A DNA stretch of 64,000 bases, from the NCBI GenBank assembly GCA_018268715.1, contig JAFDVZ010000034.1, positions 18,057 through 82,056 on the forward strand, given 5' to 3'. This DNA is from Acidobacteriota bacterium. Lineage in GTDB: Bacteria; Acidobacteriota; Terriglobia; Bryobacterales; Bryobacteraceae. Every line of letters begins with the position of its first letter. Within the stretch, counting starts at the first letter, position 1. Positions 1,812 to 44,322 of the stretch are shown here, in pieces. Made by a program: the position numbers and the translations under genes. The notes beneath the pieces were generated by a model. The model was not told where the DNA came from, made no database searches, and worked only from the letters and a program-made list of their open reading frames with translations.

Positions 1812-2038
1812 ACCTTAAACTACAACACACCTCCGCTTCCGCCCGCCCGCGTTCCCCGTGAGGCGTCCCCCACTGGCGGCCGCGGCGACGCGGCAGGCAG
1901 ACGAACCGTCGAATCGTTGTCAACCCGGGTCTGATTAGATTGTGAGTGGTGGATTGCCGGCGTTCCCGCGAACACGCGTGTCAGATGGCTCTGACCGGAA
2001 GCTGTGTGAAAACTAACATTCCCCACCGGAAGCCGGGA

Positions 2039-2063
2039 GGAAGGCGGCGTAACGCCGCCTTCC
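2039..2063 (-). terminator. GC-rich hairpin downstream of the 2085-3338 gene (putative terminator)
   Basis: Perfect 11-bp stem GGAAGGCGGCG-taa-CGCCGCCTTCC, 21 nt past the stop codon. There is no clear U-tract, so terminator function is inferred only. Confidence 0.4.
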
Positions 2064-2084
2064 ATGGGTCCCGGTCGGTGAGGT

Positions 2085-3338: not shown

Positions 3339-4213
3339 ACGTGGTTCCCTTCTCGTCCTGCCACATCCTGGGAACGGTCAGACTTCCCATGATGTTACGG
3401 TACAACTCGTTACGATTTACAGATCCATGCCAAGTCGGTAGATCTCGGCATGACGGCAAATCGGCGATTGAATCATGTAAAGATAAAGTCTACACCTGAT
3501 TGCGGTCGACTGACGCATTGAAATGAGTACTGCCTTGGCTAGTGTCCTAAGCGGGGAGTCGGCTGGATAAGATGGACGTAGTCGAATACCTGGGCATGTC
3601 GATCGGGAAACCCACCAAACCCCTGACAACTAAGAGAGGAACGGCGCACGCTAACGTCTCTCGCGATGCCGCCCAGCTCGTGGTGTTAATCGCTTGTGGG
3701 TGTCAGAATCGCGCGGCAATTAACGGTGACACATGCGACCGCCCGCAACTGGCGCGAACGTCTTGCTGGATGAAAAGAGTCAGCAGCGAGCGTTGAACCT
3801 GATTGAACCCACCAGACTTCCTGCCTCCGACGACAGGCGTCGATAACCACCGACCCGCCAGCTCGATGGCGGCGAGCAGGCTGGTTAGCGCCGTGCCGCT
3901 CACGATCGTGTTATTACCTTGCCGGACCGTCTGCAGCGAGCGTGCGACGAGGAAGCAACACCACGGTTCGTGCTCTCGAAATAGGGATGCCTGATCACCC
4001 GGACCGGCGCCATCCAGAGTCCGGCGCCCTTCGCCTGGACCGCCGGCGCTTCAACTCCCGGCAAGGTCCCAGGCCGTTGAAAACGAATTCCTCACTCACG
4101 ACAACCTGCGACAAGTAGCAAACCGCAGGCTCCGCTCGCCGCTCAGCCATCTGAAGTGGAAACCGATTGCATCAACAAGGGCGGGCGCGAAACAGGAGCC
4201 ATCCGGCAAACCG

Positions 4214-4237
4214 AGACCATCCGACCGCGGATGGTCT
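4214..4237 (-). terminator. Putative intrinsic terminator of the TonB-dependent barrel gene
   Basis: Perfect 10-bp stem AGACCATCCG-accg-CGGATGGTCT about 20 nt after the stop at 4259. On the mRNA strand it is followed by CGGUUUGCC. Confidence 0.5.
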
Positions 4238-4258
4238 TCGGCGCCGCATTTAACAAAC

Positions 4259-7200: not shown

Positions 7201-7291
7201 CCACGACCGGCGGGAGCATTCGAAGCGCGCGCGATCGCGAACGCGATATGCGATGAAACAACGGTAGGCTGAAGCTTGCTGAATAGGTCAC
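4259..7291 (-). CDS. TonB-dependent receptor-like outer-membrane beta-barrel with N-terminal CarboxypepD_reg-like domain
   Basis: 1010-aa ORF. Signal peptide MLPPVVAFLAAAVSANAQA (the ATG at 7219 may be the true start). N-terminal beta-sandwich LRGQVTDPSSAVVPGVNIKVTG..GRYTVNLPPGAYQV, long barrel body, and terminal aromatic ...FQLRFQF. This architecture is typical of Acidobacteria. Confidence 0.85.
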   Translation of the reverse strand: MTYSASFSLPLFHRISRSRSRALRMLPPVVAFLAAAVSANAQAVLRGQVTDPSSAVVPGVNIKVTGGAAARQVKTDSQGRYTVNLPPGAYQVQAQAAGFAPFNRADVAITAGQPTTLDISLEIAAEAQQVNVTADGGAQASVDPSANLGAIVLKKEDLEELPDDPDDLQSDLEALAGPSAGPNGAQFFVDGFSGGQLPPKSSIREIRINSNPFAPEYDRPGFGRIEILTKPGTDNYHGTVFLNVGDRIFDTRNPLLTSDQPGYSSKFFTGNFGGPLTKKSSFFIDFFRRDINQGALINARTLDSSFNEVAYNGSYPTPQHLWTIAPRLDYQLNATNTLVMRYSHSDNSNTGGVGQFNLPSQETVAHTKNNVAQITETAILGTKAIDETRFQFGDNHTNQAGTGDSSIPGINVASSFNSGGSPMSSNFTHTRSYELQNILTLTHGAHTIKAGGRLRQSDLDSRSTSNFNGSYTFGTPSASAACLSGIGNPTSLDLYRQTEILLAQGMPMSAILASGCGPTQFTLSGGIPEQSVRQLDLGLFVQDDWRVRPNLTVSAGLRYETQNNIHDHRDFAPRLSIAWSPMAKANRPSKTVIRAGWGVFYDRFDLSDTLLALRFNGVNQANYVINSGTAGATPQALAALGYFPAAPPVSLLNLQNQALYVVDKNFHAPYMMQTAVGVDRTLPWKTSLSVNFVQTRGLDVLRTRDINAYLPGTYTGPGTGVRPYSTDNDIYLFESSGMFKQTQLIMNVSNRLSSHLQLQGYYVYGQAHSNANGFPMDQYNADQDWGRSNYDIRQRAFIGGSVGLPFKWVAAPFITMSSGAPFNITTGGAFNGSGIFNARPTFATSASNAKSVYATPWGNFNINPVSGETLIPYNYGEGPGQFSVNMRLSRTWGWGEKKGSGSMDSGRGMGGPGGPGGGGPRGGRGGGGFAGGMGGFGGFGGGSTGKRYNLTFTASARNLFNHVNYGAPNGVLSSPFFGESTSLSGGGPGGFGGGSAAGNRKVEFQLRFQF

Positions 7292-7422
7292 AATTGCCTC
7301 TGAGTGTCCCCTAAAAGACGCAACAGGAATCGCGGCGTGTTACGGGAGTTACAAAAATTGACATTAGCCGCCGCTGTAACATTTATCCCCGCCCTCATCG
7401 TCAACAACTCCGTCAGGAGACA

Positions 7423-8112
7423 ATGATGCAGATGAACATCTCCGCTGCGGCGGGGTTAGCGGCGCTCTTTGCCGCCATATCGCCCGGACTCGCGCAGCAA
7501 TCGTCAACGGGCCAGTCGGACCTGTCCTATCCATCCCTCGGCAGGCGTTCGACGACCATCAATCACGACAACGCCCCGCCCTCCACGAACGGACGCGCGG
7601 CCTCCGCCGGAGAGTCGATTCATGGGGCGGGCGGCGGTACCGACGTGTTCGCCGCCTCGGAATGGGTGGACTCTGAATTTCTCGGTGAAACCCTGCAAGC
7701 CGCCTCCGTCGAGTTAGAACTCGGGCGCCTGGCCGGCGAAAAGAGTCAGAGGGAGGATGTTAAGAATCTGGCCCGGTCGGTAGTTATGGGACACACTCGC
7801 ATGACGGCGGCCCTTAAGTCCCTTGCCGAATCCCACAACCTGGCTGTCTCAATCGCGACGCCGCCGAGGCGAAGAGCGCGGATCGACGCCATAACTAAGT
7901 TGCAGGGTGCCGAGTTCGACCGTGCGTACCTACAACACCTGGTCTCTTACTACGAACGCGAACTGGGCCGGTTCGCCTTCGAGGAGAAGAACGGGAGCAT
8001 CACCGAATTGACGGCCTTGGCCGGAAGGGTGTCCCCGCGCCTCCAGCATCATCTTAGAGCGGCGAAGGAATGTCTTCGAACTCCGGCCGCGGCCGCCCAG
8101 CCGCGAAAGTAA
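7423..8112 (+). CDS. DUF4142-like secreted protein
   Basis: 229-aa ORF with signal peptide (AAGLAALFAAISPGLAQQ). Two helical repeats match the DUF4142 pattern (EFLGETLQAASVELELGRLAGEKSQ..VKNLARSVVMGHT; GAEFDRAYLQHLVSYYERELGRF). Confidence 0.7.
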   Translation: MMQMNISAAAGLAALFAAISPGLAQQSSTGQSDLSYPSLGRRSTTINHDNAPPSTNGRAASAGESIHGAGGGTDVFAASEWVDSEFLGETLQAASVELELGRLAGEKSQREDVKNLARSVVMGHTRMTAALKSLAESHNLAVSIATPPRRRARIDAITKLQGAEFDRAYLQHLVSYYERELGRFAFEEKNGSITELTALAGRVSPRLQHHLRAAKECLRTPAAAAQPRK

Positions 8113-8380
8113 CCTGCCCGCGGCGATTCGGCCACGCTCCCCTCGGTCATGTCGAGAAGACGACGGCGCCTGGCCCTTCGGTTACAGGCGCCTCCTCCGC
8201 TTCGCCGCGTCTTCTCCCCCGTTTCAGCCCCCCGATTTCTTCCATTCACACGAAATGGAGGCAAATATCTTCAATAAATCCAACAACATCCAAAATTAGA
8301 CGCCGTCCAGTTACTGACAGGCGCGGTAATCTGAAAGTGGAAGGAGGGGCTCAGCGCCCCCAAATCCCGTTGTGGCGCTA

Positions 8381-8553
8381 GACACCTTGATCAGGTGGCT
8401 AGTCGTGAAAATCGACGAACCCATAGGCGAGTTCGCCTGTTCCTCCAAGCAATTGAAAATACAGACGATTTTATTCCGAATGGCTCAACCGGACCGCCGG
8501 ATTTCAAAACGAACCCATAGCCGGCCTCAAAGCCACCAGACTGAAGTGTACAT
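8381..8553 (+). repeat. Copy A of a ~170-nt dispersed non-coding repeat (partner at 30686-30859, minus strand)
   Basis: Blocks shared with copy B at identical spacing: GACACC..GGTGG hairpin, GTGAAAATCGACGAA (8405-8419), 96 nt start-to-start to ATTTCAAAACGAACCCAT (8501-8518), then a 26-nt gap to AGTGTA (8545-8550). It lies in the convergent spacer between the DUF4142 gene and hutH. Confidence 0.6.
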
Positions 8554-8561
8554 TCCGCCGG

Positions 8562-10049
8562 TCAGGCGAGGCCGCCCGCGGCGATCAGCGCGCTGACCCG
8601 TTCGATGTCGGCCGCCAGCGCCCGGTCGCCGGTCCACGGCGCCGACGCCTCGGCGATCCGCCCCCGGGCGGCCTCGATCGCCGGACTCGACCGCAACGGC
8701 TTCAGACAGTCGAGCGCCCGGGCGGCGGCCAGCGCCTCGATCGCCAGCACCGTGCGAGCGTTCCCGATCGCCTGCTGCAGCTTGAGCGCGCCCGTCATCC
8801 CCATGCTGACGAAGTCCTCCTTGTTGCCGCTGGTCGTGATGGAGCCGGGCGTGGCCGGCGTCGCCAGCACCCGATTCTCCGCCACCAGGGCGGAGGCGGT
8901 CACCTGCAGCATCATGAAGCCGGATTCAAGGCCCGCGTGATTGGCGAGAAACGGCGGCAGCCCCTCGTTGAGCGAAGGATTCACCAGGCGGTCGATGCGG
9001 CGTTCGGCGAAGCCGGCGAGCGCCGCCATGGCGATGGCCATATAGTCGAACTGCAGCGCGATCGGCTGCCCATGGAAGTTGCCGCCCGAGATAATCTCGT
9101 CGCCGAACACCAGCGGGTTGTCGGTCACCGAATTCAGCTCGATCTCGAACGTCCTCCGGGCCGCGGCCAGCGTGTCGCGGACCGCCCCGTGCACCTGCGG
9201 AGCGCACCGCAGCGTGTAGGCGTCCTGCACATGTCGGCAGGCGATGTGGCTCAACCGGATGTCGCTGCCTTCGAGCGTCCGCGCCAGCCGGGCCGCGCTC
9301 GCCATCTGCCCTGGATGCGGCCGCGCCGCGTGGATGCGCGGGTCGAACGCGCGAGGCGTGCCCTTCAGCCCGTCGATGGACATGGCGCAAATCAGGTCGG
9401 CCGCCTCGGCCAGCGTCTCGGCTTCGAGCAACGCCAGGCACCCGATCGCGAGCATCGCCTGCGTGCCGTTCACGAGCGAAATGCCCTCCTTGGCCTCGAG
9501 CGTGAGCGGCCCGACGCCCGCCCGACGCAAGGCCTCGGCGCCCGGCCCCCGTTCCCCCTGGAACTCGGCCTCGCCCTCGCCGATCAGCACCAGCGCCATA
9601 TGGGCCAGCGGAGCCAGGTCGCCGCTCGCCCCCGCGCTGCCCTTCGACGGCACACACGGCGTCACCCCGGCGTTCAGCAACTCGCACAACCGCTCGGCCA
9701 CAACCGGCCGGATGCCTGAACATCCAATGGCGAGAACGTTCGCCCGGATCAGCATCATCGCCCGAACCACGGACCGGTCGAGCAGCGGCCCCACGCCAAC
9801 GGCGTGCGACCGCACGATGTTACGCTGCAACTGCTCGAGCTCGCCCGGCGAGATACGAACATCGGCCAGCAGGCCGACCCCGGTATTGACGCCGTAGACC
9901 GCGTCGTCGCCCGCCGCCAACCGTTCGACGACGGCGCGCGACGCCCGCATCCGCCCGCGGGCCTGCTCCGCGATCTCGACGGCCTCGCCGCCCACCGCCA
10001 CCGCGTGGACCTGCTCGACCGAGAGCCGGTCCCCGGTTAATGTAACCAT
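8562..10049 (-). CDS. hutH: Histidine ammonia-lyase (aromatic amino-acid lyase family)
   Basis: Carries the MIO-forming motif GSAGASGDLAPLAHMAL, plus NTGVGLLA and YTLRCAPQVHG. The 496-aa length from the ATG at 10049 (MVTLTGDRLS..) fits HAL. The track ORF extends to 10520, but that extension is compositionally non-coding and overlaps the divergent gene. Confidence 0.9.
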   Translation of the reverse strand: MVTLTGDRLSVEQVHAVAVGGEAVEIAEQARGRMRASRAVVERLAAGDDAVYGVNTGVGLLADVRISPGELEQLQRNIVRSHAVGVGPLLDRSVVRAMMLIRANVLAIGCSGIRPVVAERLCELLNAGVTPCVPSKGSAGASGDLAPLAHMALVLIGEGEAEFQGERGPGAEALRRAGVGPLTLEAKEGISLVNGTQAMLAIGCLALLEAETLAEAADLICAMSIDGLKGTPRAFDPRIHAARPHPGQMASAARLARTLEGSDIRLSHIACRHVQDAYTLRCAPQVHGAVRDTLAAARRTFEIELNSVTDNPLVFGDEIISGGNFHGQPIALQFDYMAIAMAALAGFAERRIDRLVNPSLNEGLPPFLANHAGLESGFMMLQVTASALVAENRVLATPATPGSITTSGNKEDFVSMGMTGALKLQQAIGNARTVLAIEALAAARALDCLKPLRSSPAIEAARGRIAEASAPWTGDRALAADIERVSALIAAGGLA

Positions 10050-10067
10050 AGAGCCATCGTAGATCAC

Positions 10068-10610
10068 ATGGAACGCCTCCCCTATCTCGCCACCGCCGCG
10101 GCCGCGCCCTATGAGGCCATGGGCCGGCTGCCGGTGTGCGTCCTGCTCGACAACGTCCGCAGCCTCTACAACGTCGGGTCCTTCTTCCGCACCTGCGACG
10201 CGGCCGGAGTCGAGAAGCTCTACCTGTGCGGCATCACCGGCCACCCGCCCCACAAGTCCCTGAAGAAGACCGCCCTCGGCTCGGAGGAGCGCGTCCCCTG
10301 GGTGCACACCTGGCACGCCGCCGACTCGCTCCGCGTCCTGCACGACCGGGGCTTCGAGGTCGCCGCCATCGAAACCAGCGTCCATTCGGTCGACCTGTTC
10401 GACTGGCGCCCCCGCTTCCCCGTCTGCATCGCCTTCGGCCACGAAGTGGAGGGCCTTCAGCCGCACGTGCTCGAAGCCTGCGACACCCATGTCCGCATCC
10501 CCATGCTGGGCCTGAAGCACTCGCTGAACGTGGCCACGGCGGGCGGCGTCGTCATCTATGAACTGCTGCGCAAGTACCGCCGGCTGGTGGAGAATGGGAG
10601 CATCCTATGA
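10068..10610 (+). CDS. SpoU/TrmH-family RNA 2'-O-methyltransferase
   Basis: 180 aa. LLDNVRSLYNVGSFFRTCDAAGVEKLYLCG, FGHEVEGL and IPMLGLKHSLNVATAGGVVIYEL are the SpoU methylase motifs. Confidence 0.85.
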   Translation: MERLPYLATAAAAPYEAMGRLPVCVLLDNVRSLYNVGSFFRTCDAAGVEKLYLCGITGHPPHKSLKKTALGSEERVPWVHTWHAADSLRVLHDRGFEVAAIETSVHSVDLFDWRPRFPVCIAFGHEVEGLQPHVLEACDTHVRIPMLGLKHSLNVATAGGVVIYELLRKYRRLVENGSIL

Positions 10611-31776: not shown

Positions 31777-32236
31777 AGTGAGCAGAGCGCTGCCTGGAAG
31801 GGCCCTCGCCGGCCACCAGGGAGGAGAGCAAGAACGTGTTGAACGCGGCCCACCATGCCGGCTCGGGGCCCCCTCGGATGACCCTCTGGCGGTTGATTTC
31901 GAGCCGGCGGCCACGGCGCCGGTCCGCGGTGGACTCCACCGGTCCGTAGAGCCCTGTCCAGGCACAACGCCAGCCGGTCGAAGAACCCCGACAACAGCGC
32001 AAGCAGACGATGGTGGACGTCCGAAATGGCAGCCCGGATGATGCCCGCGATGGGCAACGGCGCGATGGACAGAGTGCGGCGAGTGGAACCCGCGGAGCGT
32101 CCGGCATCACCGAAGGAAGAGACGGCGGCGGGCGATTCAGGCGCTGCCGGAGAACGGGCTGGCGCGGTTCGGGGCGGATGCGCCAAAACTAGCGAGGGGG
32201 AAAGACGGGCCTGCGCGCCCCGCGGCTCCACTTGCG

Positions 32237-32272
32237 CTTCTACAGGAGATGATGTACAGTCTCCTGTAGAAG
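32237..32272 (+). promoter_or_regulatory. Perfect 13-bp inverted repeat upstream of the first PadR gene (candidate operator or anti-SD hairpin)
   Basis: CTTCTACAGGAGA-tgatgtacag-TCTCCTGTAGAAG ends 14 nt before the ATG at 32287. The SD GAGGAG lies at 32278-32283. Confidence 0.45.
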
Positions 32273-32286
32273 CCATAGAGGAGCAC

Positions 32287-32619
32287 ATGCCGGACAAACG
32301 CATTGACCTTCCGCAAGGCACCCTGGACCTCCTGATCCTCCGCACGCTCGCCCTGGGACCGCAGCACGGCTGGGGCATCTCCGAGCGGGTCCAACAAACA
32401 TCGAGCAACGCGTTGCAGATTCAGCAAGGCTCCCTGTATCCAGCACTCCACCGGCTGGAGCGGCGCGGCTGGATCAAAGCACGCTGGGGAACATCGGAGA
32501 ATAACCGGAAGGCTAAATATTACGAACTCACGCGAGCCGGGCGCCGCCAGCTCGATTCGGAGACCGACGCCTGGAAGAGGCTGACAGCCGCCGTGGCCCA
32601 GGTGCTGGGGACGGCGTAG
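32287..32619 (+). CDS. PadR-family transcriptional regulator (acidobacterial type)
   Basis: 110 aa from the ATG at 32287. [67 protein letters not shown] is a PadR winged-helix. It is followed 11 nt later by an ADOP permease, the classic pairing. Confidence 0.9.
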
Positions 32620-32630
32620 GGAGACGCCTG

Positions 32631-35279
32631 ATGCTTGCAGATTTGTTCTTCCGCGCCCGCTCGCTGTTCCGGCGTAAAGCGGCTGAAGCAGACCTGGACG
32701 ATGAGCTTCGTTTCCACCGCGAACGGCAGTTGCGGAAGCACCTGGCGGCCGGCCTCACGGAGAGTGAGGCGTTGCGCCGCCTGCGAATGGAGTTCGGCGG
32801 GCTGGATCAAGTCAAGGAGGAGTGTCGCGACGCGCGCGGCGTACGCCCCGTCGAGATTCTCCTGCAGGACGTCCGTCACGGACTGCGGTTGCTGCGCAAG
32901 TCCCCGGGGTTCACCGCGGCCGCGCTACTTACACTCGCGCTGGGAATCGGCGCCAACACCGCGATCTTCTCGGTTCTCTACGGCGTCCTGCTTCGCCCGC
33001 TGCCATACCCGGATTCAGCGCGTCTGATCGTACTCAACGAGACTACGCCGAAGGTTGGCGGCGTCAGCGTCTCGTATCCGGACTTTCTGGACTGGCGGGA
33101 GCAGGGCCGCGCGTTTTCGAGCATGGCGGCAGCGCACAATGTCGGGTTCAATCTCTCCGGCGTCGATCGCCCGGAAAGCATCTCAGGCCAGGCTGTTTCC
33201 GCAAACTTCCTCGCGCTTCTGGGAGTGCAACCCCTTCTGGGACGCGACTTCAACGTGTCGGAGGAAAGGGCAGGCACGGCAGCGGTGGTACTGCTGAGCT
33301 ATCCACTTTGGCAGTCGCACTTCGGCGGCAACCCTAACGTGGTGGGGCGCACCCTGGCTCTCGATGGCCGGAGCTTCACAGTGGTGGGCGTGCTGCCGCC
33401 GGAGTTTCGATGGATCGAAAAGACGGACGTGCTGGAACCCATGGGCGTCTGGCTTACGAACAATCCGGCGTACGGCGAGAGAGGCGAGCGGGGCGACACC
33501 CTCGCCATTGGGCGGTTGGCTCCGGGGGTCACGCTGGCGCAGGCGCGTGCGGAAATGGCAGGCGTCGCCGCGCGGCTGGAGAGGACCTATCCCGCCACGA
33601 ATGACCAGTTCAGAGCGGAATTGCGGCCGATTCGCGACGTATTGGTCAGCGAGATCCGGCCGACCGTTCTGGTGCTCTTCGCCGCTGTTACGTTCGTGCT
33701 GCTGATCGCGTGCGCAAGCGTGGCGAACCTGTTTCTGATGCGGGGCAGCGGGCGGGCCAGGGAAATGGCCCTGCGGATGGCCATCGGCGCCACTCGCGGG
33801 CGCATCGCCGCGCAGATGCTCATCGAAAGTCTGCTTCTGACATCGCTGGGCGGCGTGGCGGGTTTGGCGCTCGCGGTCGCGGCAGTGCGCGGCATCGCCG
33901 GACTGCTTCCCGCCAATATGCTGGCGGGCGCCAGCATCGATCTGGACGGTCCCGCGGTTCTTTTCGCCATCGCGCTGGCGGCTTTGTCGGCGCTTGTTTT
34001 CGGCATCGTTCCGGCCATGCACGCGACGAGAGGCTCCGCACAGGCGGAACTGAAGAAAGGCGGAAGATCCGCAAGCGCGGGCGCGGGGGCGAGTCGCTGG
34101 CGGGGCGTCCTGGTTATCCTCGAGGTCTCGATGGCGTTGGTTCTGATGGTGGGCGCGGGGCTGATGGCGAAGAGTCTCTATCGCCTCTTTTCGGTGGACG
34201 CCGGAATTCAGACCGAGCACGTGCTGGCGATGGAAGTGAACCTGCGCACGGCGCAGTACGATCAGAGTCCCGCCAGGCTGAACTTCTGGAACCGGGTTCT
34301 GGGCGGCCTGCGGTCGCTCCCTGGCGTCCAGGCGGCGGCCCTGGGCACGGGGGTTCCGCTGACAAACGATCATTCGCGCGCCGACATCACGATTGAGGGG
34401 ATGACATTGCCGGGCCCGGGGGACTTCCCGCATCCGGATGTCCACATCGTCAGCCCCGAGTACGCCGGCGCGCTTGGCATTCCGCTGCTCGGTGGCCGGA
34501 CGTTCACAGACATGGACAATGAGCATGCTCTTCCGGTGGGCATGATCAGCGCACGCCTGGCGCGGCAGTTCTTTGGGGCCGGCGATCCGGTTGGCCGGCG
34601 TTTCCTGTTTGGCCATCCATCCTCGAAGAGAGCGCCGAGGTGGATCACGATCGTGGGGGTGGTGGGGGATACGAAACTGTACGGTCTGGCGAATCCCTCG
34701 CGGCTCGAGGTGTACGTTCCGTTCCGGCAGGAGGCGCCCGGCTCGATGACGCTATTGGTGAAATCGGCCATCGATCCGGCGACGCTCACCTCCGGGATTC
34801 GGGCTGTTATCGCTTCGGTCGACAAGGACCAGCCCCTGTTGTCCGCTGCGACGATGACGCAACTCGTCCGGGATTCGGTCTCGGCGCAACGTATCACCAT
34901 GATCGTTCTCGGAACCTTTGGCGCTCTCGCGCTGGTGTTGGCGGCGATCGGGATCTACGGCGTGATTTCGTACGCGGTGGCGCAGCGCAGCCATGAGATT
35001 GGAATTCGGATCGCGCTTGGGGCGCAGACCGGCGACGTGTTGCTTATGGTGATGACGCAGGGAGGGAAGATGGCCGGCGCCGGACTGCTGATCGGCCTGG
35101 GGGCGTCCTTCTGGCTCACGCGGCTGATGAGCAGTCTTCTCTTTTCGGTGAGCGCCGCCGACCCGGGCACGCTTGCGGCTATGACGTTTCTGCTTGGGGT
35201 GATTGCGATGCTGGCTTGCTACATTCCGGCGCGGCGAGCCGTACGTGTGGATCCGGTCAACGCGTTGCGCTGCGAGTAG
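32631..35279 (+). CDS. ADOP-family duplicated MacB/FtsX-like ABC permease (no cognate ATPase in the window)
   Basis: 882 aa. Characteristic N-terminus [57 protein letters not shown] and two MacB_PCD/FtsX halves (second FtsX: [23 protein letters not shown]). Confidence 0.9.
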
Positions 35280-35650: not shown

Positions 35651-36931
35651 CTAAGCCCACGGCACAAGTTCAACCTGTCCGACCCACCTACCGGATTGCG
35701 TTCGGTTGGCGTGCTCGCCGCTGAATCCGCACAACCGGAGAATTACGAGCTCGACATACCGCTGGGCGAGCGTCCACGCTTCGGTCGCGGGCAGGGGTCC
35801 CTCGCGCTTATCGGGATGGACAAGGTCGTTACGCACCGCGACGACAGCTCCAGGCCCGTCCGCAGCCACAGCGCTGAGCTGAGTCAGTGACGCCGGAATC
35901 TCCACCGGGATTTCCATGGCCTTGAGCAGAGTCCGGATCCTTCCAGCCGCCCCCAGTCTCTTGAAGGCTTTCGGCTCCATCCCGCCGACCATGACAAGAT
36001 ACGTCCAGCTTAGAACCTCCAGCGCCGCTTGACTCAGGATCAGAGATCCGTCGCCGCCCACGGCAACGGAATTCGCCCGAACAAACCAGTAAACCGCACG
36101 AGAGAGGGCGTACTTCCACTGGGGGTCTTCCCACTTCGCCATGAACGAAGGCACGATATCGGACAAGGTCATTCCCCGATGCGCGTCGAACCAAGTGAAG
36201 AGAGAGAATCCTTGGTCTACGAGCGGAACACTCCACCGGAACCATATGGGCTCGCCGGCCAGCCCGATGCCCGCAGGCAACATCGGGCCGGTCCACCGGC
36301 CACACACAAAGGAGAGAAATACCCCCAGCGCCTCAATGGCCGGCTCTGCATTTTGCCAGGTGAACAGTGCGGCGCCGGTTCTTTCGAGTAGCCCGATAGC
36401 GGTGATGCCGAAACCGCCGTCCTCGCTCAGCAGTTCTTTTCGCTCAGCAATGTCGGCCATCTTGCGGATAGTAGCGTGCCAGCCGGAAAACTCCAGTCGG
36501 ATTTCATCTTCTCGGACCCCGCCGCCTTCCGGGGACTTGTGGATGACGGCGTGGGCGAGGAAGTCGGGAAAGTTGGGAACCGCGAATACGATCTGCTTTA
36601 CCAACATGTCCTGCCCGGCAGGGACGACCTCCTGAAGGGGCCGCAGGCTGATGCTTGAGGGCGCTTGCGAAAACATCCTCCCCCTTGCAATTCGGCAGGG
36701 ACTTTTCGCGCCGGAGGACAGAAACGTCACATCCACGTCGTTGCTGATGTCGATTCCGAAATAGGGCGGTACTTCGAACTCGAACTCGAGCTTCGGCCGA
36801 GGAACCATGGTAACGGTAGCCGTGAGTGGGCCTGTCAGGGTCTTGCCGCCGAGCCGGACGGACACCTGCGCGGCGCCAAGCACGATGGGCCGGTTGGGGA
36901 GAGGGATCTCGAAGCAGGGATGCGCGGGCAC
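35651..36931 (-). CDS. Hypothetical protein with C-terminal HEPN-like domain (ApeA-like architecture suspected)
   Basis: 426-aa ORF with a GTG start and no signal peptide or TM. The C-terminal ~130 aa is helical and carries VAVRNDLVHP, an R-x4-H HEPN-type motif, preceded by SQAALEVLSW. The N-terminal ~150 aa looks beta-rich. Codon usage is less GC3-biased than in neighbouring genes. Confidence 0.6.
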   Translation of the reverse strand: MPAHPCFEIPLPNRPIVLGAAQVSVRLGGKTLTGPLTATVTMVPRPKLEFEFEVPPYFGIDISNDVDVTFLSSGAKSPCRIARGRMFSQAPSSISLRPLQEVVPAGQDMLVKQIVFAVPNFPDFLAHAVIHKSPEGGGVREDEIRLEFSGWHATIRKMADIAERKELLSEDGGFGITAIGLLERTGAALFTWQNAEPAIEALGVFLSFVCGRWTGPMLPAGIGLAGEPIWFRWSVPLVDQGFSLFTWFDAHRGMTLSDIVPSFMAKWEDPQWKYALSRAVYWFVRANSVAVGGDGSLILSQAALEVLSWTYLVMVGGMEPKAFKRLGAAGRIRTLLKAMEIPVEIPASLTQLSAVAADGPGAVVAVRNDLVHPDKREGPLPATEAWTLAQRYVELVILRLCGFSGEHANRTQSGRWVGQVELVPWA

Positions 36932-37457: not shown

Positions 37458-37766
37458 ATGGTGCAGGGAACCCTCGACATGCTGATTCTGAAAACGCTCG
37501 CGCTCGAGCCGATGCACGGCTGGGGCGTCGCGCAGCGCATCGAACAGAGCAGCGGCGGCGTCTTCAAGGTGAACGCCGGGTCCTTGTTTTCGGCTTTCTT
37601 ACGACTGGAACGGGCCGGCAGCGTTAAAACCGAGTGGATGACCAGCGAGAATAACCGGCGCGCCAAGTACTATTCGCTGACGACCGCGGGCAAGAAAACG
37701 CTCGCGCGGGAAACGCGCGAGTGGGAACGGCAGATTTCGGCCATCGCCAGAATCCTGGAGGCGTGA
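37458..37766 (+). CDS. PadR-family transcriptional regulator (acidobacterial type)
   Basis: 102 aa. GTLDMLILKTLALEPMHGWGVAQRI..GSLFSAFLRLERAGSVKTEWMTSENNRRAKYYSLTTAGKKTL. Directly abuts the next ADOP gene. Confidence 0.9.
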   Translation: MVQGTLDMLILKTLALEPMHGWGVAQRIEQSSGGVFKVNAGSLFSAFLRLERAGSVKTEWMTSENNRRAKYYSLTTAGKKTLARETREWERQISAIARILEA

Positions 37767-40493
37767 GTGTTCTCCAAAAAGAGACGGGAACTCGACGAAG
37801 AACTGCGGTGCTATTTCGACATGTCCGTCGAGGCCAAGATGCGCGGAGGCATGACGGCAGACGAAGCCAGACGCGTCACCCGAATGGAGATGGGAAGCAT
37901 GGACTCGGTGAAAGAAGACGTTCGCGACTCCGCCTGGGAATCCGTGTTTGGCGACCTGTGGCAGGACCTTCGCCATGGTCTGCGCCAACTACGCCGCAGC
38001 CCCAGCTTCACTGCGATCGCGATTCTCACGCTGGCGCTTGGACTCGGCGCCAACACCGCGATCTTCACGCTGATTCACGGCGTCATGCTGAAGCAGCTTC
38101 CGGTGCAGGACCCGGGGAAACTGTATCGCATCGGCGCCGGTGAGAACTACTGTTGCCTTTGGCTTGGCTTGCAGGACAACTGGGGCACATTCTCCTACCC
38201 CTTTTACCGGCGCCTTGCCGATACGAACAAAGCATTCTCAAACATCGCGGCTTTCTCCGGCGCGAATCCTTCGCTGGGCGTCAGGCGCGCCGGTTCCACT
38301 GAACCGGCCAAGACACTCGCCGGCGAGTGGGTCTCCGCCAACTACTTTGCGACGTTCGGGTTGAACGCGGCGACCGGGCGTTTGTTTGTTCCAGCCGACG
38401 ACGCCACCACCGCGCCTCCCACCGTGGTGATGAGCCACCGTGCGTGGAAGCAGAAATACAACTCGGACTCCACAATCATCGGCTCGACTCTGATGGTGAA
38501 CGGGCGCGCGATGACGCTGATCGGCATAGCACCGGAAGGATTCGAAGGCGCACGCCTCACCCAGCGTCCGCCGGAACTCTGGATGTCACTGGGGCAGGAA
38601 CCGGGTTTTGCCGGGTCCGCACATAACTCCATGTTGCCCCAGCGGGAGGCGTCCTGGCTGTTCCTGATCGGGCGCATGAACCCGGGCTACTTGCCGGCCG
38701 CGGTTGAAGTGCAGATCACAAATGAGTTGCGGCAAACCCTGGCCGAATTCCGGACCAGCGATGAAGATCGCGAACGGCTGCCCAGACAACAGGTTCGGGT
38801 GATCCCCGGCGGCGCCGGCGTCTCTTCGCTGCGCTCGGACTCCGAATCCGGACTGCAATTCCTGGCGATCGCGGCCGGCCTGGTGCTCCTTATCGCCTGC
38901 GCCAATCTCTCCAACCTCCTGCTTGCCCGGGGCGTCGCGCGCCGTCAACAGATGGCTCTGCGCCTCTCACTCGGAGCCACCCGCTTCCGGCTGATGCGCG
39001 GCGTTTTCGCCGAAAGCCTGCTGCTCGCGATCTTCGGCGGCATCGGCGGCATCGCCGTCGCCTATGCAGGAACGGCGATGATTCTCTGGATTGCTTTTCG
39101 CGGGGATACCTTCATCCCGGTGAATGCGAGCCCTTCGATACCAGTGTTCGGCTTCGCCTTTGCGCTGGCGACGGTGGCAGGATTGGTCTTCGGTCTGTTT
39201 CCGGCATGGAAGAGCACGGATGCGGGAGTTGGGGAAGCGTTGCGCCGCGGGGGCCGGGGCACGACGGACTCATCCACCGGGCCGCAGCGCGCGCTCGTGA
39301 TCCTGCAGGCGGCGCTATCGATTGTGCTCCTGGCCCTGACGGGATTGGTCACGCAGAGCTTGCGGAATCTGGAAAAGACGGAATTAGGATTTGCTACACA
39401 AGGCCGGGTAATCGCCAACATCAGCCTTGACTCAGCGGGTTATCAACAAGCGGACCTCCCATCGTTTTATCCGCGGCTTGACGAGGCGCTGCGGGCCATC
39501 CCCGGTGTACAGACAGCCAGCTACTCGCTGCAGACACCGCAGCGTTCCTGTTGCATCAACCTTGGCGTTCAGATCGACGGGCGGACGGAAAAGTGGATCG
39601 GCGACACCAACGTCCTGTTCAATCGGGTCAGTCCGGAGTACTTCGAGACGATGGGTGTACGGGTGCTTCGCGGACGTCCGTTCTCACCCCGTGACACGCA
39701 GACGGCCGTACACGTCGCGATCGTCGATGAGTGGTTCGCGACCAAGTTCTGGGGCAGTATCGAAGAGGCAATGGGAAAGCGTTTCGGCGCGCCGGTTGAC
39801 GGCCACGCCCGTGACTACCAGGTCGTCGGCGTCGTGAACACGGTGAAGTACCGCAATCCATCGCTGGTGCAACACCCGATGTATTTTCTGCCGTTTACCC
39901 AGACCACGGATTACGTCCCCGAGGGTTACCGACGCCTGGAAGAGGGCACTCTACATCCGCAAGCAATTCAGCTGAAAGTCTCCGGGCCGCCGGAGCGGTT
40001 TGAGCCGCTGCTGCGCAATGCCCTTGCCCGCCTCAACCCCAATCTGCTTCCCATCGAACCCAGGTCCTACAGCGAACAGGTGGCGGTACAGTTCAATCGC
40101 GAACGGCTCGCCGCGCGGCTGACGGTGATCTTCAGCCTGCTCTCAGTGCTGCTTGCGTCAATCGGCCTATACGGCGTCACCGCCTACAACGTCACGCGGC
40201 GAACCAGTGAGATCGGGATACGAATGGCGCTCGGCGCGGACCGAGCCGGTGTCCTTCGGATGATCTTGAAAGGCGCACTCGTCAACGTCGGCATTGGCCT
40301 TTTGATCGGCGCCCCGATTGCGATCTTTGCTGGGCGGGCGCTCGCGTCCAAGCTCTACCAGATCGCGCCGTTCGACCCGCTATCGGTCGGCGGTGCGATT
40401 GCCGCGCTGTTGTTCTTCGCAACACTGGCGGGCGTCATCCCGGCGTTACACGCCGCGTCCATCGCTCCGATCGCTGCACTGCGAAACGAGTAA
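37767..40493 (+). CDS. ADOP-family duplicated MacB/FtsX-like ABC permease (second paralogue)
   Basis: 908 aa with a GTG start adjacent to the PadR stop. DLWQDLRHGLRQLRRSPSFTAIAILTLALGLGANTAIF, and second FtsX half YGVTAYNVTRRTSEIGIRMALGA. Confidence 0.9.
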   Translation: MFSKKRRELDEELRCYFDMSVEAKMRGGMTADEARRVTRMEMGSMDSVKEDVRDSAWESVFGDLWQDLRHGLRQLRRSPSFTAIAILTLALGLGANTAIFTLIHGVMLKQLPVQDPGKLYRIGAGENYCCLWLGLQDNWGTFSYPFYRRLADTNKAFSNIAAFSGANPSLGVRRAGSTEPAKTLAGEWVSANYFATFGLNAATGRLFVPADDATTAPPTVVMSHRAWKQKYNSDSTIIGSTLMVNGRAMTLIGIAPEGFEGARLTQRPPELWMSLGQEPGFAGSAHNSMLPQREASWLFLIGRMNPGYLPAAVEVQITNELRQTLAEFRTSDEDRERLPRQQVRVIPGGAGVSSLRSDSESGLQFLAIAAGLVLLIACANLSNLLLARGVARRQQMALRLSLGATRFRLMRGVFAESLLLAIFGGIGGIAVAYAGTAMILWIAFRGDTFIPVNASPSIPVFGFAFALATVAGLVFGLFPAWKSTDAGVGEALRRGGRGTTDSSTGPQRALVILQAALSIVLLALTGLVTQSLRNLEKTELGFATQGRVIANISLDSAGYQQADLPSFYPRLDEALRAIPGVQTASYSLQTPQRSCCINLGVQIDGRTEKWIGDTNVLFNRVSPEYFETMGVRVLRGRPFSPRDTQTAVHVAIVDEWFATKFWGSIEEAMGKRFGAPVDGHARDYQVVGVVNTVKYRNPSLVQHPMYFLPFTQTTDYVPEGYRRLEEGTLHPQAIQLKVSGPPERFEPLLRNALARLNPNLLPIEPRSYSEQVAVQFNRERLAARLTVIFSLLSVLLASIGLYGVTAYNVTRRTSEIGIRMALGADRAGVLRMILKGALVNVGIGLLIGAPIAIFAGRALASKLYQIAPFDPLSVGGAIAALLFFATLAGVIPALHAASIAPIAALRNE

Positions 40494-40498
40494 AGGGC

Positions 40499-40639
40499 AG
40501 GAACTGGCACGGTAGTGCTTCCGGTCTCAACCTTTCTCTGCATGATGGCGTGACTTCCGCGCTGTCGCACCTTCTGAAATCCATTGCGTTCCAAGATCCG
40601 GCAAACCCCTTCCCCCGAGAGCGGTCCGAGTTTAGGCAA
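40499..40639 (-). pseudogene. Truncated HicA-like toxin remnant
   Basis: The minus-strand frame reads LSGEGVCRILERNGFQKVRQRGSHAIMQRKVETGSTTVPVP, which matches the HicA/YcfA core (..GSH......G..TTVP.H). The conserved C-terminal ~15-20 aa are missing and the frame runs antisense into the ADOP gene. No hicB partner is present. Confidence 0.4.
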
Positions 40640-40667
40640 CCCTGACCTCGACTTAGGTGACACGGCG

Positions 40668-41153
40668 TTCAAGTACCGGCCCGGCGGCGGCTTCGGCCGG
40701 CTGGGCGTCAAGATGGCGGATTACATCCCTTACATGCGCGAGTTGCGGAGGGCCGTGGGACCCGACTTCGACCTGATTCAGGAGGCGAATAAATGATGGT
40801 CGATGGAGCAGTGCATGGAGGTGGCGCCGGTGATGGAGGAATTGAAGCACCTCTGGTTCGAGGAGCCCACGCGCAAGAAGATTGACAACTACGTCCGGCT
40901 CAGGAAACATCTGCCCACGGTGAAGATTTCCGGCGGCGAGACGATGCCGAACCGCGCTGCCTTGGCCGAATGGGTGGACCGCGGCACTTATAACATCGTG
41001 CAGCCCGGCTGCGACGACGCCGGCGTCACCGAGTGCTGGCACATGGCGCGGATGGCCGGCAGCCGAGGAAAGCTCATCAAGGAGGGGCTTGAGGAACTGT
41101 ATCCGCCGATTCCGGGCAACTGGAACATGCCTGACCCGAACTTTCCCGGGTGA
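40668..41153 (+). pseudogene. Enolase-superfamily (mandelate racemase/muconate lactonizing enzyme-like) gene fragment with an in-frame stop
   Basis: RELRRAVGPDFDLIQEANK-TGA-WSMEQCMEVAPVMEELKHLWFEEPT..KISGGETM..YNIVQPGCDDAGVTEC matches the MR_MLE C-terminal barrel region. An in-frame TGA sits at 40794-40796. The N-terminal capping domain and the distal C-terminus are absent. Confidence 0.6.
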
Positions 41154-41581: not shown

Positions 41582-41603
41582 CCAAGGGGGCCTGCCCCCT
41601 TGG
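41582..41603 (-). terminator. GC hairpin downstream of the TIR-FGE-like gene (possible terminator)
   Basis: CCAAGGGGGC-ct-GCCCCCTTGG, about 33 nt after the stop at 41636. No U-tract on either strand. Confidence 0.35.
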
Positions 41604-41635: not shown

Positions 41636-42826
41636 TTAAGGCAATTCCCCGGCGCACCGGAACCCTATGTCGTCGCGCCGGACCGCTGGCCCGTACCAGC
41701 CACGGACCGAGACGCGGACGAACGTTGGACTGTGGCTCCAAGAGCCGCCCCGCAGAACTCGCGAATCTCCGGTCTGTGGGCCTTTCGGGTCCAGAGCCAC
41801 ATCCCGACTGTACGGTCCGTACCAATCCGCAACCCACTCCCACACGTTCCCGAGCGAGTCGTAGAGACCCCACGCATTCGCTTGCTTCCCTCGGACTGGC
41901 TGTCGCCGCCCGCCACTGTTGCTGTCGTACCAGGCCACCGCACTCAATTCTCCGTATCGAGGAGCAGCGCTCCCCGCCCTGGCGGCGTACTCCCATTCCG
42001 CTTCCGTGGGCAAACGCATACCCGCCCACTTGCAGTACTCCACCGCCTCATTCCAGGTCACATTCACCTGAGGCAAATCCGGGTTCGCTTCGGGCTCTTT
42101 CTTTTGGAACCGGGCGAAAGCACCGACTGTTACTGGCGTCTGACCCATCCAGAATCCACGGGGCAAGGTCACGCGATGCGCTGGCCTCTCATTAGCTCTC
42201 GCCTCGCGGTCGTTCTCCGAGGCGCCCATCATGAATTCGCCAGACGGGATCCACACGTACGTGAGCCCGTCGATCGGGTTCACCCGTGTGGCCCCTGGCG
42301 ACGGAGCGGACGGACGGTCCGCAGTTTCTACCAAAGGCGCGGATCCTTGGACGTTTGAGGAGTCGTCGAGAGGCTGGCCCTGCTGCTCCGGTCGAGGCTC
42401 TTCCGCGCCGGACTCCCGCGCCGGCGGCTTCACGGTCTGAGACAGCACCTCCCGGATGCTACCGACCAGGTGCGCGAAGCCCTCCGTCTCTCGAGCCCCC
42501 GCCCAGTCAGCGAGATCACAGGTCTGGAGCGAATCGAACGGGAGTTTCGGGACCACGCACTCCATTCGGGCGGGCACGAGGATGTTGCGGTTCAGCCCTC
42601 GGGTGGCTTCGGCGTACACCCAGTTACTGGCGGTGGAGTCGGCAGTCCAAACGACCAGGACACAGCGGGCGCCGTTCAATTCCCTCTCGATGACATCAAC
42701 GAATTGAACTCCGCCCCGTATCTTCGGGTCCCACCAGACAGAGAATCCTTCCTGAAGGAGCGCGGCTGCGAGTAGGCGCACTCGGTCCTTGTCCTTCTGC
42801 GAGTAACTCAGGAAGATGTCCGCCAT
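41636..42826 (-). CDS. TIR-domain protein fused to a cysteine-less FGE/SUMF1-like (formylglycine-generating-enzyme fold) domain
   Basis: From the ATG at 42826 (the track uses GTG 42844) the TIR hallmarks are MADIFLSYSQKDKD, FSVWWD and CVLVVWTADSTASNWVYAEA. A Pro/Glu/Gln-rich linker follows. The FGE-sulfatase-like C-terminus reads YVWIPSGEFMMG, NVTWNEAVEYCKWAG, RLPTEAEWEYAARAG, NAWGLYDSLGNVWEWVADWY and RVLRGGSWSHSPTFVRVSVRG. No signal peptide or TM. Confidence 0.85.
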   Translation of the reverse strand: MADIFLSYSQKDKDRVRLLAAALLQEGFSVWWDPKIRGGVQFVDVIERELNGARCVLVVWTADSTASNWVYAEATRGLNRNILVPARMECVVPKLPFDSLQTCDLADWAGARETEGFAHLVGSIREVLSQTVKPPARESGAEEPRPEQQGQPLDDSSNVQGSAPLVETADRPSAPSPGATRVNPIDGLTYVWIPSGEFMMGASENDREARANERPAHRVTLPRGFWMGQTPVTVGAFARFQKKEPEANPDLPQVNVTWNEAVEYCKWAGMRLPTEAEWEYAARAGSAAPRYGELSAVAWYDSNSGGRRQPVRGKQANAWGLYDSLGNVWEWVADWYGPYSRDVALDPKGPQTGDSRVLRGGSWSHSPTFVRVSVRGWYGPAVRRDDIGFRCAGELP

Positions 42827-42924
42827 GGGCCGGTGTCGCCTCACATTGTCCCATAGAGCGGGCGTTGTGATAGGCGCATCTTCGTGGCCTGTGGCTCCAA
42901 ACGGCCACCAGTATTCGGGCGATT

Positions 42925-44322
42925 CTACGCGCCGCCGCCGAGCACCTTGTAGAGAATCACCAGATTGCCGAGACGAGATAGCCGGATGCCCACCATGGCT
43001 TGCTGGGCGGCGTAGAGCGAACGCTGCGCCACCAGCACGCTCAGGTAGTTATCCACGCCGGCTTTGTAGCGCGCCTCAGTCAACCGATAAGTCTCACCCA
43101 AGGTGTTGACCAACGCCTGCTGCGCTGACTGCTGCTCAAGCAACCGGCCGCGCTGACTCAGCGCGTCGCTGACTTCGCGAAAGGCTACCTGGATGGCCTG
43201 CTCGTATTGCGCCACCGCGGCGTCGCGGTCGAGTTCCGCCACCTGGTAGTTCGTCTTGCGGATGCCGGAGTCGAAAATCGGGACGGTGATCTGCGGGGCG
43301 AATTGCCAGGTGAGCGCGCGCGGCGAAAATAGCTGCGATAACGCGCTGCTGGTGATTCCGCCGCCTCCCGTCAGCACGATGGTGGGGAAGAAGGCCGCCC
43401 GGGCCGCCGCGATGTTCGCGTAGGCCGCTTTCAACTGGTGCTCCGCGCTTACGATGTCCGGGCGGCGGAGAAGCACGCCGGAGGGTAGGCCGGCGGCTAC
43501 TTCCTTCAACGCCTCCGCCGGACCTAACTCGCGGGGTAACAGGCTCTCTGGCACAGGCGCGCCCACCAGAAGGGTCAGGGCGTTTTCATCCAATGTCAAC
43601 AGGCCCGTGAATCGCACGACGTCGACTTGCGCGGCTTCCACCTGGCTCTGAGACTGACTGACCTCCAGGTCGGACTTGAGTCCCTTGTCTCTAGTCTGGC
43701 GGACCAGATCGTAGGTCGCTTTCTGGGCGTCGAGCGTGGCCTGGGCCAGGCGCAGGTTGTCACGGTCGGCGCCCAGCGCGAGATAGGCCGTCGCTACTTC
43801 GCTGACCAGGGCGAGTTGGGTGGAGATTCGACCCTGTTCGGTGGCGAGATATTGCTCCAAGGCCTGTTGCTTCAGGCTGCGGATGCGGCCGAAGAGATCG
43901 GCTTCCCACGAGGAGACCTGCACGCCGATCTGCATGGTCTCGTAGGTGTAGGCCTTGTCGTTACTGGTCATGTCGCGGGGAATGCGGTAAGCGTCCCCGG
44001 TGGCGCCCGCGTTGACGGTCGGGAATTGACGGGCCCGCTGGATCCGAAACAGCGCTTGCGCCTTTTCGACGTTCAGGGCCGCCAGACGCAGGTTGCGATT
44101 GTTGTCGAGCGCCAGTTTCACCACCTGACGCAGACGGTCGTCCAGGAAGAAATCGGCCCACTTGAGATCGGCGGGCGAGGCGGCGCCGGCTGGCTCACTG
44201 GCTGGCAGGCCGGTGTTCCAGGTTTCCGGCACCGGGGGCGGCGGCGCTTTGTACGTCTGCTTCTGGGGCGCGCAGGCGGCCAGCAGCAGGGCGCAGGGGA
44301 CAAGAAGAACCTTACGGGTCAT
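42925..44322 (-). CDS. RND efflux outer-membrane factor lipoprotein (NodT/TolC family)
   Basis: 465 aa with lipobox LLLAACAPQ. Two OEP repeats and TolC-like coiled-coil heptads. Last gene of the MFP-RND-OMF operon. Confidence 0.9.
   Translation of the reverse strand: MTRKVLLVPCALLLAACAPQKQTYKAPPPPVPETWNTGLPASEPAGAASPADLKWADFFLDDRLRQVVKLALDNNRNLRLAALNVEKAQALFRIQRARQFPTVNAGATGDAYRIPRDMTSNDKAYTYETMQIGVQVSSWEADLFGRIRSLKQQALEQYLATEQGRISTQLALVSEVATAYLALGADRDNLRLAQATLDAQKATYDLVRQTRDKGLKSDLEVSQSQSQVEAAQVDVVRFTGLLTLDENALTLLVGAPVPESLLPRELGPAEALKEVAAGLPSGVLLRRPDIVSAEHQLKAAYANIAAARAAFFPTIVLTGGGGITSSALSQLFSPRALTWQFAPQITVPIFDSGIRKTNYQVAELDRDAAVAQYEQAIQVAFREVSDALSQRGRLLEQQSAQQALVNTLGETYRLTEARYKAGVDNYLSVLVAQRSLYAAQQAMVGIRLSRLGNLVILYKVLGGGA

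Follow-up and report, generated by a model that had tools for sequence, protein, structure and literature searches.

A TIR protein with a lectin-like FGE-fold domain in an Acidobacteriota genome: a plausible single-protein immune receptor whose relatives include targets of diversity-generating retroelements

We have analysed a 64-kb stretch of the Acidobacteriota contig JAFDVZ010000034.1 (hereafter the window, meaning the whole of its 64,000 nucleotides), in which one reverse-strand gene encodes a TIR domain, a disordered linker and a C-terminal domain with the fold of formylglycine-generating enzymes (FGE). Its features are collected in Table 1. Read from the GTG at 42844, the open reading frame (ORF) encodes 402 residues and ends in a TAA stop at 41636-41638; the ATG at 42826 is the likely true start, giving 396 residues. 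This is also the start of the NCBI copy, MBS1877766.1 (396 residues, from an 85.9-kb contig of an Acidobacteriota metagenome-assembled genome, or MAG), which bears the product name 'SUMF1/EgtB/PvdO family nonheme iron enzyme', and the NCBI/Logan protein P0001 is 100% identical to the window protein over 396 residues. A preliminary description of this DNA, made from its letters, had proposed a TIR domain fused to a catalytically dead FGE-like domain, and Pfam bears out both domain calls: TIR_2 is matched with E=3e-22 (79.8 bits against a cutoff of 28) and FGE-sulfatase PF03781 with E=9.5e-53 over profile positions 5-254 of 255. Both domains are also confident in an AlphaFold2 model of the whole protein built on a 62-sequence family alignment (mean predicted local distance difference test, pLDDT, 90.5). 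The linker alone falls below a pLDDT of 50, at residues 137-170 in the 396-residue numbering, with some 45 residues disordered, and its length among homologues varies widely, from roughly 15 to more than 200 residues. As first described, the protein has neither a signal peptide nor a transmembrane segment, since strand A of the TIR domain begins at residue 3-4. The GC content of the gene is that of its surroundings, and it has no paralogue within the window.

Table 1. Positions, in window coordinates, of the TIR-FGE gene, its parts and the gene fragments and unassigned ORF near it
Feature	Position	Strand	Details
TIR-linker-FGE-fold (lectin-like) gene	41636..42844	-	ORF list and reading of the sequence
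TIR domain	42464..42817	-	residues 10-127 of the 402-residue ORF; Pfam TIR_2
Putative catalytic Glu codon, GAA	42608..42610	-	E79 of the 402-residue ORF, E73 of the 396-residue protein; motif NWVYAE
Disordered Pro/Glu/Gln/Ala-rich linker	42290..42445	-	about residues 134-185; low pLDDT
FGE-sulfatase-fold domain of C-type-lectin/FGS type, predicted ligand-binding sensor	41651..42259	-	residues 196-398
23-codon stretch SHSPTFVRVSVRGWYGPAVRRDD	41669..41737	-	between RGGSW and IGFRC; site of the Cys pair in true FGE
HicA toxin fragment	inside ORF 40355-40711	-	profile positions 4-38 of 58
Internal fragment of an enolase-superfamily (MR_MLE) gene	about 40650-41153	+	
426-residue ORF ('HEPN-like')	35651-36931	-	R-x4-H motif RNDLVH near the C-terminus

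The TIR domain keeps the residue expected of an NAD+-cleaving enzyme. In HMMER alignments to solved structures every column of its NWVYAE motif is in register with DWTNYE from AbTir; the alignment to PdTIR likewise ends on a Glu, and the TIR domain of SARM1 was matched as well. By these alignments E79 is at the position of the catalytic Glu, as the preliminary description had it. This Glu is present in 80 of the 81 proteins with a TIR-linker-FGE architecture that we found among the top 120 homologues (the family, as we use the word here), it is invariant in alignment A2, and the W-V-x-x-E-A motif that contains it is nearly invariant across the 81. A model of the TIR domain alone (AlphaFold2, pLDDT 91) has as its top Foldseek matches in the PDB the AbTir filament 7uxu, an active form, together with the TIR domains of SARM1 and of SPARTA TIR-APAZ, while the best PADLOC match of the protein is the CBASS TIR-SAVED effector. 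AbTir, SARM1, SPARTA and CBASS TIR-SAVED are NAD+-cleaving enzymes (NADases) that become active once their TIR domains are assembled. We infer from this likeness that the TIR domain of the window protein would cleave NAD+ too. A homologue search with the TIR domain alone, using a word index, returned 21 candidates, too few to bear on other kinds of sensor domain.

At the other end of the protein, the fold is that of FGE, without its active-site cysteines. The scaffold can be aligned well with the Streptomyces and human enzymes. A His stands in place of the first active-site Cys, and the second coincides with a deletion of three residues; the copper-binding Cys pair that follows RGGS[YFW] in true FGE is thus absent from the window protein, and the C-x4-C spacing occurs in none of the 81 family members. 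The database name fares no better. NCBIfam scores lie far under their cutoffs (EgtB, 113 against 360; SenA, 98 against 420; PvdO, 75 against 500). The EgtB match extends at best over profile positions 270-413 of 413, and the SenA match is likewise confined to the C-terminal part of its profile; on these profile scores the name of 'nonheme iron enzyme' is a label for the fold only. Foldseek matches the domain to PvdO, human FGE and TvpA, the variable protein of a diversity-generating retroelement (DGR) in Treponema denticola (PDB 2y3c), and the lowest root-mean-square deviation, 2.5 A, is to TvpA. TvpA is also the best PDB sequence match of the C-terminal half, in an alignment that runs without gaps from RGGSW to GFR. 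The idea of a 'catalytically dead FGE' therefore holds as far as the loss of the cysteines goes and fails as a picture of a decayed enzyme: its place is in the non-enzymatic C-type-lectin/FGS branch of binding domains, which TvpA typifies.

Domains of this type are found in many other settings. The closest single-domain relatives of the window domain (56% identity) come from proteins in which two FGE domains stand in tandem behind a different N-terminus, for instance a trypsin-like domain, and P0121-P0134 of the representative library are giants of 1,600-4,448 residues with 6-11 tandem FGE-like domains close to that of the window. A profile search with the family alignment against 1.84 billion representatives was dominated by such giants, with up to 11 tandem FGE-like domains. 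The FGE-like domain is a widely repeated module, and this search gave no count of TIR-FGE fusions.

The 23 residues that occupy the site of the missing Cys pair, SHSPTFVRVSVRGWYGPAVRRDD, are predicted to form the ligand-contact surface. Across the family this stretch is hypervariable, through DGR action or positive selection: in pairs of proteins with FGE scaffolds that are 80-87% identical to one another, the residues are unlike at about 60-65% of the 23 positions, and only a P/R/S/R/P/R framework is kept throughout. Full-length copies occur in Acidobacteriota, Gammaproteobacteria and Cyanobacteria.

In two relatives the stretch proved to be a target of a DGR. We searched homologue loci (numbered with the prefix L) for repeats of the 3' end of the TIR-FGE gene. 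A scan of a genome collection, with search patterns drawn from the FGE part, had yielded full-length TIR-FGE genes in 3 of 80 loci, and two of these three carry a repeat of about 120-130 nt just upstream of the gene. In L009, from a Bryobacteraceae MAG, the repeat lies at 3503-3623 and 13 of the 15 mismatches between gene and repeat fall at adenines of the repeat; in L012, from a Methylococcaceae MAG, it lies at 5625-5755 and all 16 substitutions do so. Both repeats translate to Asn-rich strings, as is typical of DGR template repeats, and both are adjoined by a reverse transcriptase gene. The accessory protein Avd is recognised in L012 by the Pfam model bAvd and in L009 by tblastn similarity upstream of the reverse transcriptase. 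In the L012 cluster (599-10267) bAvd lies at 4218-4571 and the reverse transcriptase at 4568-5632. With these template repeats and their adenine-specific mismatches, and with reverse transcriptase and Avd genes at both loci, the stretch without cysteines is a genuine DGR variable repeat in these relatives, in which it constitutes a programmable ligand-binding surface.

The two retroelements appear to have further targets. That of L012 appears to serve three, an nSTAND1-FGE protein, the TIR-FGE protein and a REase-FGE protein. In the last (8333-10261, forward strand), the whole of a Type II restriction endonuclease (PADLOC REase_II, E=1.7e-157, residues 6-385) is followed by an FGE/lectin-like domain at the C-terminus. 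The 3' end of the DNA for this domain (10005-10267) shares 85% identity with the variable repeat of the TIR-FGE gene, and a DNA methylase gene (7456-8340) adjoins the fusion gene within the DGR cassette. The pairing of a restriction enzyme with a hypermutable lectin domain seems an unusual one. A gene for a SIR2_2-TIR fusion stands at the 5' end of the same cluster. The DGR of L009 (245-6413) has two variable repeats, one at 1776-1900 in a gene for an X-FGE protein and the other within the TIR-FGE gene (3807-5156). Directly downstream of this gene lies a second TIR-FGE paralogue (5247-6413); its equivalent stretch is 74.6% similar only, and it may not be a current DGR target. Repeats of other kinds were also seen. 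In L003 (8836-9514) the 3' end of the TIR-FGE gene matches that of a convergent NACHT-FGE gene at 78.6% identity over 238 nt. A reverse transcriptase was not found in the DNA fetched for that locus, and the likeness may stem from a remote template common to both genes or from a recent exchange of domains. In L008 (12895-12987) the last 93 nt of the TIR-FGE gene recur with 97.8% identity some 3.7 kb downstream, near a 76-residue FGE fragment; this is probably a duplicated gene fragment, because its mismatches are not adenine-specific.

The window copy, for its part, looks fixed in its specificity, judging from its DNA. There is no template repeat of the TIR-FGE gene anywhere in the 64 kb, and tblastn with the L009 and L012 proteins found neither a reverse transcriptase nor Avd in the window. 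A 99%-identical, full-length variant from an independent metagenome, P0271, differs by three substitutions, all outside the 23-residue stretch; it is a single comparison, and it argues against ongoing hypermutation of this copy. The codons of the stretch hint at an older history. It shares its 23-codon register with the template repeats of L009 and L012. Of the 12 positions at which the L012 template encodes Asn, 9 have NNC codons in the window, as do 13 of the 23 positions overall (p=0.015). This pattern is no more than suggestive of a DGR ancestry, and the test does not discriminate, because loci with a proven DGR give similar or weaker values.

We then considered the company that these genes keep, in ten homologue loci and the window, eleven neighbourhoods in all. 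No partner gene is conserved across the eleven. About 7 of them hold NLR-like, SIR2, toxin-antitoxin, transposase or DGR genes, and homologues often stand beside NLR-like, SIR2 or restriction-modification genes. L003 has NACHT-FGE, DUF4062 and YoeB toxin genes; L008 has SIR2 and TPR proteins; L065 has an nSTAND1-WD40 giant and a KAP-like NTPase; L004 and L006 have transposases and a toxin gene, with tandem TIR-FGE copies also in L006; L009 and L012 have their complete DGR cassettes; and L007 and one JGI contig have only housekeeping genes. A sulfatase is found in none of the ten homologue neighbourhoods, nor among the window neighbours scanned, and this, along with the lack of an intact Cys pair in all 81 members, goes against placing the family in sulfatase operons. 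The suggestion that the FGE fold serves the TIR domain as a ligand-binding sensor is, by contrast, backed by the DGR variable repeat of homologues, the hypervariability of the family, the immune-type neighbours and the absence of sulfatases.

The neighbourhood of the window gene itself is less telling. As the preliminary description stated, the gene lies just downstream of, and in the same orientation as, an RND efflux operon of membrane-fusion, pump and outer-membrane genes, the last of which (42925-44322) is 80-98 nt away. Co-transcription with this operon is possible in the window genome, because no terminator was detected in the gap of 80-98 nt. We rejected a functional link between the two, given that no homologue shares the RND context. 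On the downstream side, the gene does border a decayed stretch (40355-41153) with fragments of HicA and of an enolase-superfamily gene. Intact MR_MLE genes lie less than 5 kb from TIR-FGE homologues in L004/L005 and on one JGI contig, which may be a coincidence. A GC-rich hairpin, CCAAGGGGG-CAGG-CCCCCTTGG, occupies 41582-41603 on the reverse strand, 33 nt after the stop codon; no T-run follows it, the terminator scan did not call it, and its role could be that of a terminator or of a regulatory stem. The further flanks hold pairs of PadR regulators and MacB-type permeases, a DEAD-box helicase and ribosomal protein genes. There are two such pairs, of PadR with a MacB/FtsX-type permease (32026-35279 and 37458-40493), the first PadR of the window matches TIGR03433, a model of acidobacterial PadR paralogues, and a PadR and MacB-like pair is also found near the TIR-FGE homologue of L001. 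The 'HEPN-like' ORF has no match in Pfam, NCBIfam or PADLOC. The proposal that the TIR-FGE gene, the hicA region and this ORF form a small 'defence islet' did not survive PADLOC, NCBIfam and Pfam scans of the neighbours: the ORFs scanned gave no PADLOC match, and no defence-related Pfam or NCBIfam match beyond the HicA fragment.

Taking these observations together, we favour, with somewhat better than even confidence, a receptor-effector activated by clustering, in which a lectin-like sensor controls an NAD+-cleaving TIR domain and the ligand is probably foreign and multivalent. The gene product would be a cytoplasmic protein combining receptor and effector in a single chain. Its FGE-fold domain would serve as a non-enzymatic, C-type-lectin-like binding module, and the surface formed by the 23 residues between RGGSW and IGFRC would be directed at a specific macromolecule, the most likely source of which is a phage or another invader. 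The TIR domain would be an NAD+-cleaving enzyme that requires TIR-TIR assembly for its activity. When several receptors bind a multivalent or oligomeric ligand, the flexible linkers would allow their TIR domains to be brought together, and the clustered domains would then hydrolyse NAD+ and cause growth arrest or abortive infection. The family would descend from DGR targets, as it is one still in some genomes, and the window copy, with no DGR nearby, would be a version with a fixed, germline-type specificity.

A number of points weigh against this interpretation. A conserved Glu is no proof of NADase activity. The activation step is a conjecture, since no part of the window protein is dedicated to oligomerisation in the way that an NTPase or a SAVED domain would be. 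The ligand, which we suppose to be foreign, could be an endogenous one. Housekeeping and efflux genes make up most of the window neighbourhood, without a match to known defence models, and at least two homologue neighbourhoods are purely housekeeping. Finally, the preliminary description knew of no experimental characterisation of a TIR-FGS protein, and a literature search likewise found no experimental data for any TIR-FGE protein.

A bolder form of the same idea can be put forward tentatively, as possible rather than probable. In it, the protein is a minimal pattern-recognition receptor, an antibody-like lectin paratope mounted on a TIR NADase that has no NTPase switch and is activated purely by clustering on its ligand. 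The window copy would be the germline-fixed descendant of receptors hypermutated by DGRs, so that the family would span both adaptive-like versions, linked to a DGR, and innate-like versions, which are fixed.

The most serious alternative, unlikely as we hold it to be, is that of a non-immune sensory or regulatory protein, whose FGE-like domain would bind an endogenous or environmental ligand and whose TIR domain would relay a physiological signal, along the lines of the 'regulatory pathway tuning' proposed for cyanobacterial DGR targets. Multidomain lectin-like DGR targets, TIR-like ones included, have indeed been read as signal-transduction proteins (PMC7517822), and the housekeeping context of the window gene and of some homologues is in keeping with this. 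However, the DGR of L012 diversifies STAND and restriction-enzyme fusions together with the TIR-FGE gene, which are partners of an immune type, NLR-like genes are frequent neighbours of homologues, the TIR domain is closest to immune NADases and a hypervariable binding surface is the expected product of an arms race. It is improbable, too, that the protein is a signal generator of the Thoeris kind, in which the lectin-like domain would sense and the TIR domain would make a cyclic ADP-ribose-type messenger for a separate effector encoded elsewhere. There are weak, partial matches to ThsB TIR models, all of them below threshold (15.1 bits against a cutoff of 21.2 for ThsB_TIR), and SIR2-domain proteins that match the SIR2 part of ThsA adjoin the TIR-FGE genes of L008 and of the L012 cassette. 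These neighbours nevertheless match positions 10-230 only of the 478 of the ThsA profile, and no ThsA-like or other conserved partner stands beside the window gene or most homologues. Very unlikely, in our judgement, is a decaying remnant with no current function: the gene does adjoin truncated HicA and enolase-superfamily fragments and has no DGR or partner gene nearby, but its 396-residue ORF is intact, the nearly invariant residues of the family, catalytic Glu included, are kept, both domains fold confidently in the AlphaFold2 model and the variant P0271, from an independent sample, is also full length. A genuine enzyme of the SUMF1/EgtB/PvdO type with a TIR appendage is the least likely of these readings, its NCBI name and its FGE-fold matches to EgtB, SenA and PvdO models being outweighed by scores far below every NCBIfam cutoff, an unmatched N-terminal part of EgtB, the missing Cys pair, the lack of any sulfatase or pyoverdine context and the hypervariability of what would be its active-site stretch.

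Should the receptor-effector interpretation be true, the widespread TIR-FGE family would represent the simplest design known for an immune receptor of bacteria, in which a lectin-type surface that is hypervariable is coupled directly to a TIR domain that destroys NAD+. With both DGR-hypermutated and fixed copies in the family, adaptive-like and innate-like recognition could then be compared within a single scaffold, and the binding stretch would lend itself to reprogramming. For the window gene, the analysis corrects the annotation, which should not be that of a 'nonheme iron enzyme', and provides a clean, DGR-free candidate for biochemistry.

It remains to place this protein among the systems already known. 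With FGE/SUMF1 it has in common the overall fold and the scaffold motifs RLPTEAEWEYAAR, GNVWEW and RGGSW, and it differs in lacking the Cys pair, in a loop three residues shorter, in having no sulfatase neighbour and in a stretch that is hypervariable rather than conserved. With TvpA it shares the same fold, a gapless alignment of the variable repeat and the lowest Foldseek deviation, whereas TvpA has no TIR domain and the parts of a TvpA-type DGR (template repeat, reverse transcriptase and Avd) are absent from the 64 kb of the window; unlike DGR variable proteins, moreover, its binding stretch shows no variation between strains in the one comparison available. The closest structural and PADLOC matches of the TIR domain, AbTir, CBASS TIR-SAVED and SPARTA TIR-APAZ, have the TIR fold and the catalytic Glu in common with it. 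These proteins assemble through a SAVED domain, an Argonaute partner or self-filamentation, whereas the window protein offers only a lectin-like module and a disordered linker. ThsB of Thoeris works with an adjacent ThsA effector; the window has no ThsA-like neighbour.

The nearest precedents are computational predictions of 'antigen sensor' proteins with TIR and lectin-like or FGS domains. In two studies from Aravind's group (Kaur et al. 2020/2021; PMC7159879, PMC8195603), FGS domains are described as lectin-like modules for sensing invaders, always C-terminal to effectors and often linked to DGRs, and the window protein follows the fixed order of N-terminal effector and C-terminal FGS that PMC7159879 notes. 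Architectures combining TIR and FGS_fold are listed in the supplementary tables of PMC8195603; none was found in the supplement of PMC7159879. TIR-like domains have also been reported on lectin-type DGR targets in cyanobacteria (Vallota-Eastman 2020, PMC7517822) and in Thiohalocapsa (PNAS 2024, PMC10907252). STAND proteins with FGE-sulfatase sensors feature in studies of bacterial NACHT proteins and in a survey published in Nature in 2026. In the STAND/NLR-FGS conflict systems (Kaur et al. 2021) a STAND NTPase stands between effector and FGS, where the window protein has only its disordered linker; STAND-FGS genes do lie beside TIR-FGE homologues in L003 and L012. As far as the accessible parts of these descriptions go, FGS systems are mostly STAND or MoxR-vWA ternary systems of multicellular bacteria, whereas the window protein is a bare two-domain protein, without NTPase, ternary partners or DGR, in an acidobacterial genome. 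Proteins joining TIR and lectin-like domains have thus already been predicted computationally, and the window gene is a plausible single-protein immune receptor among them.

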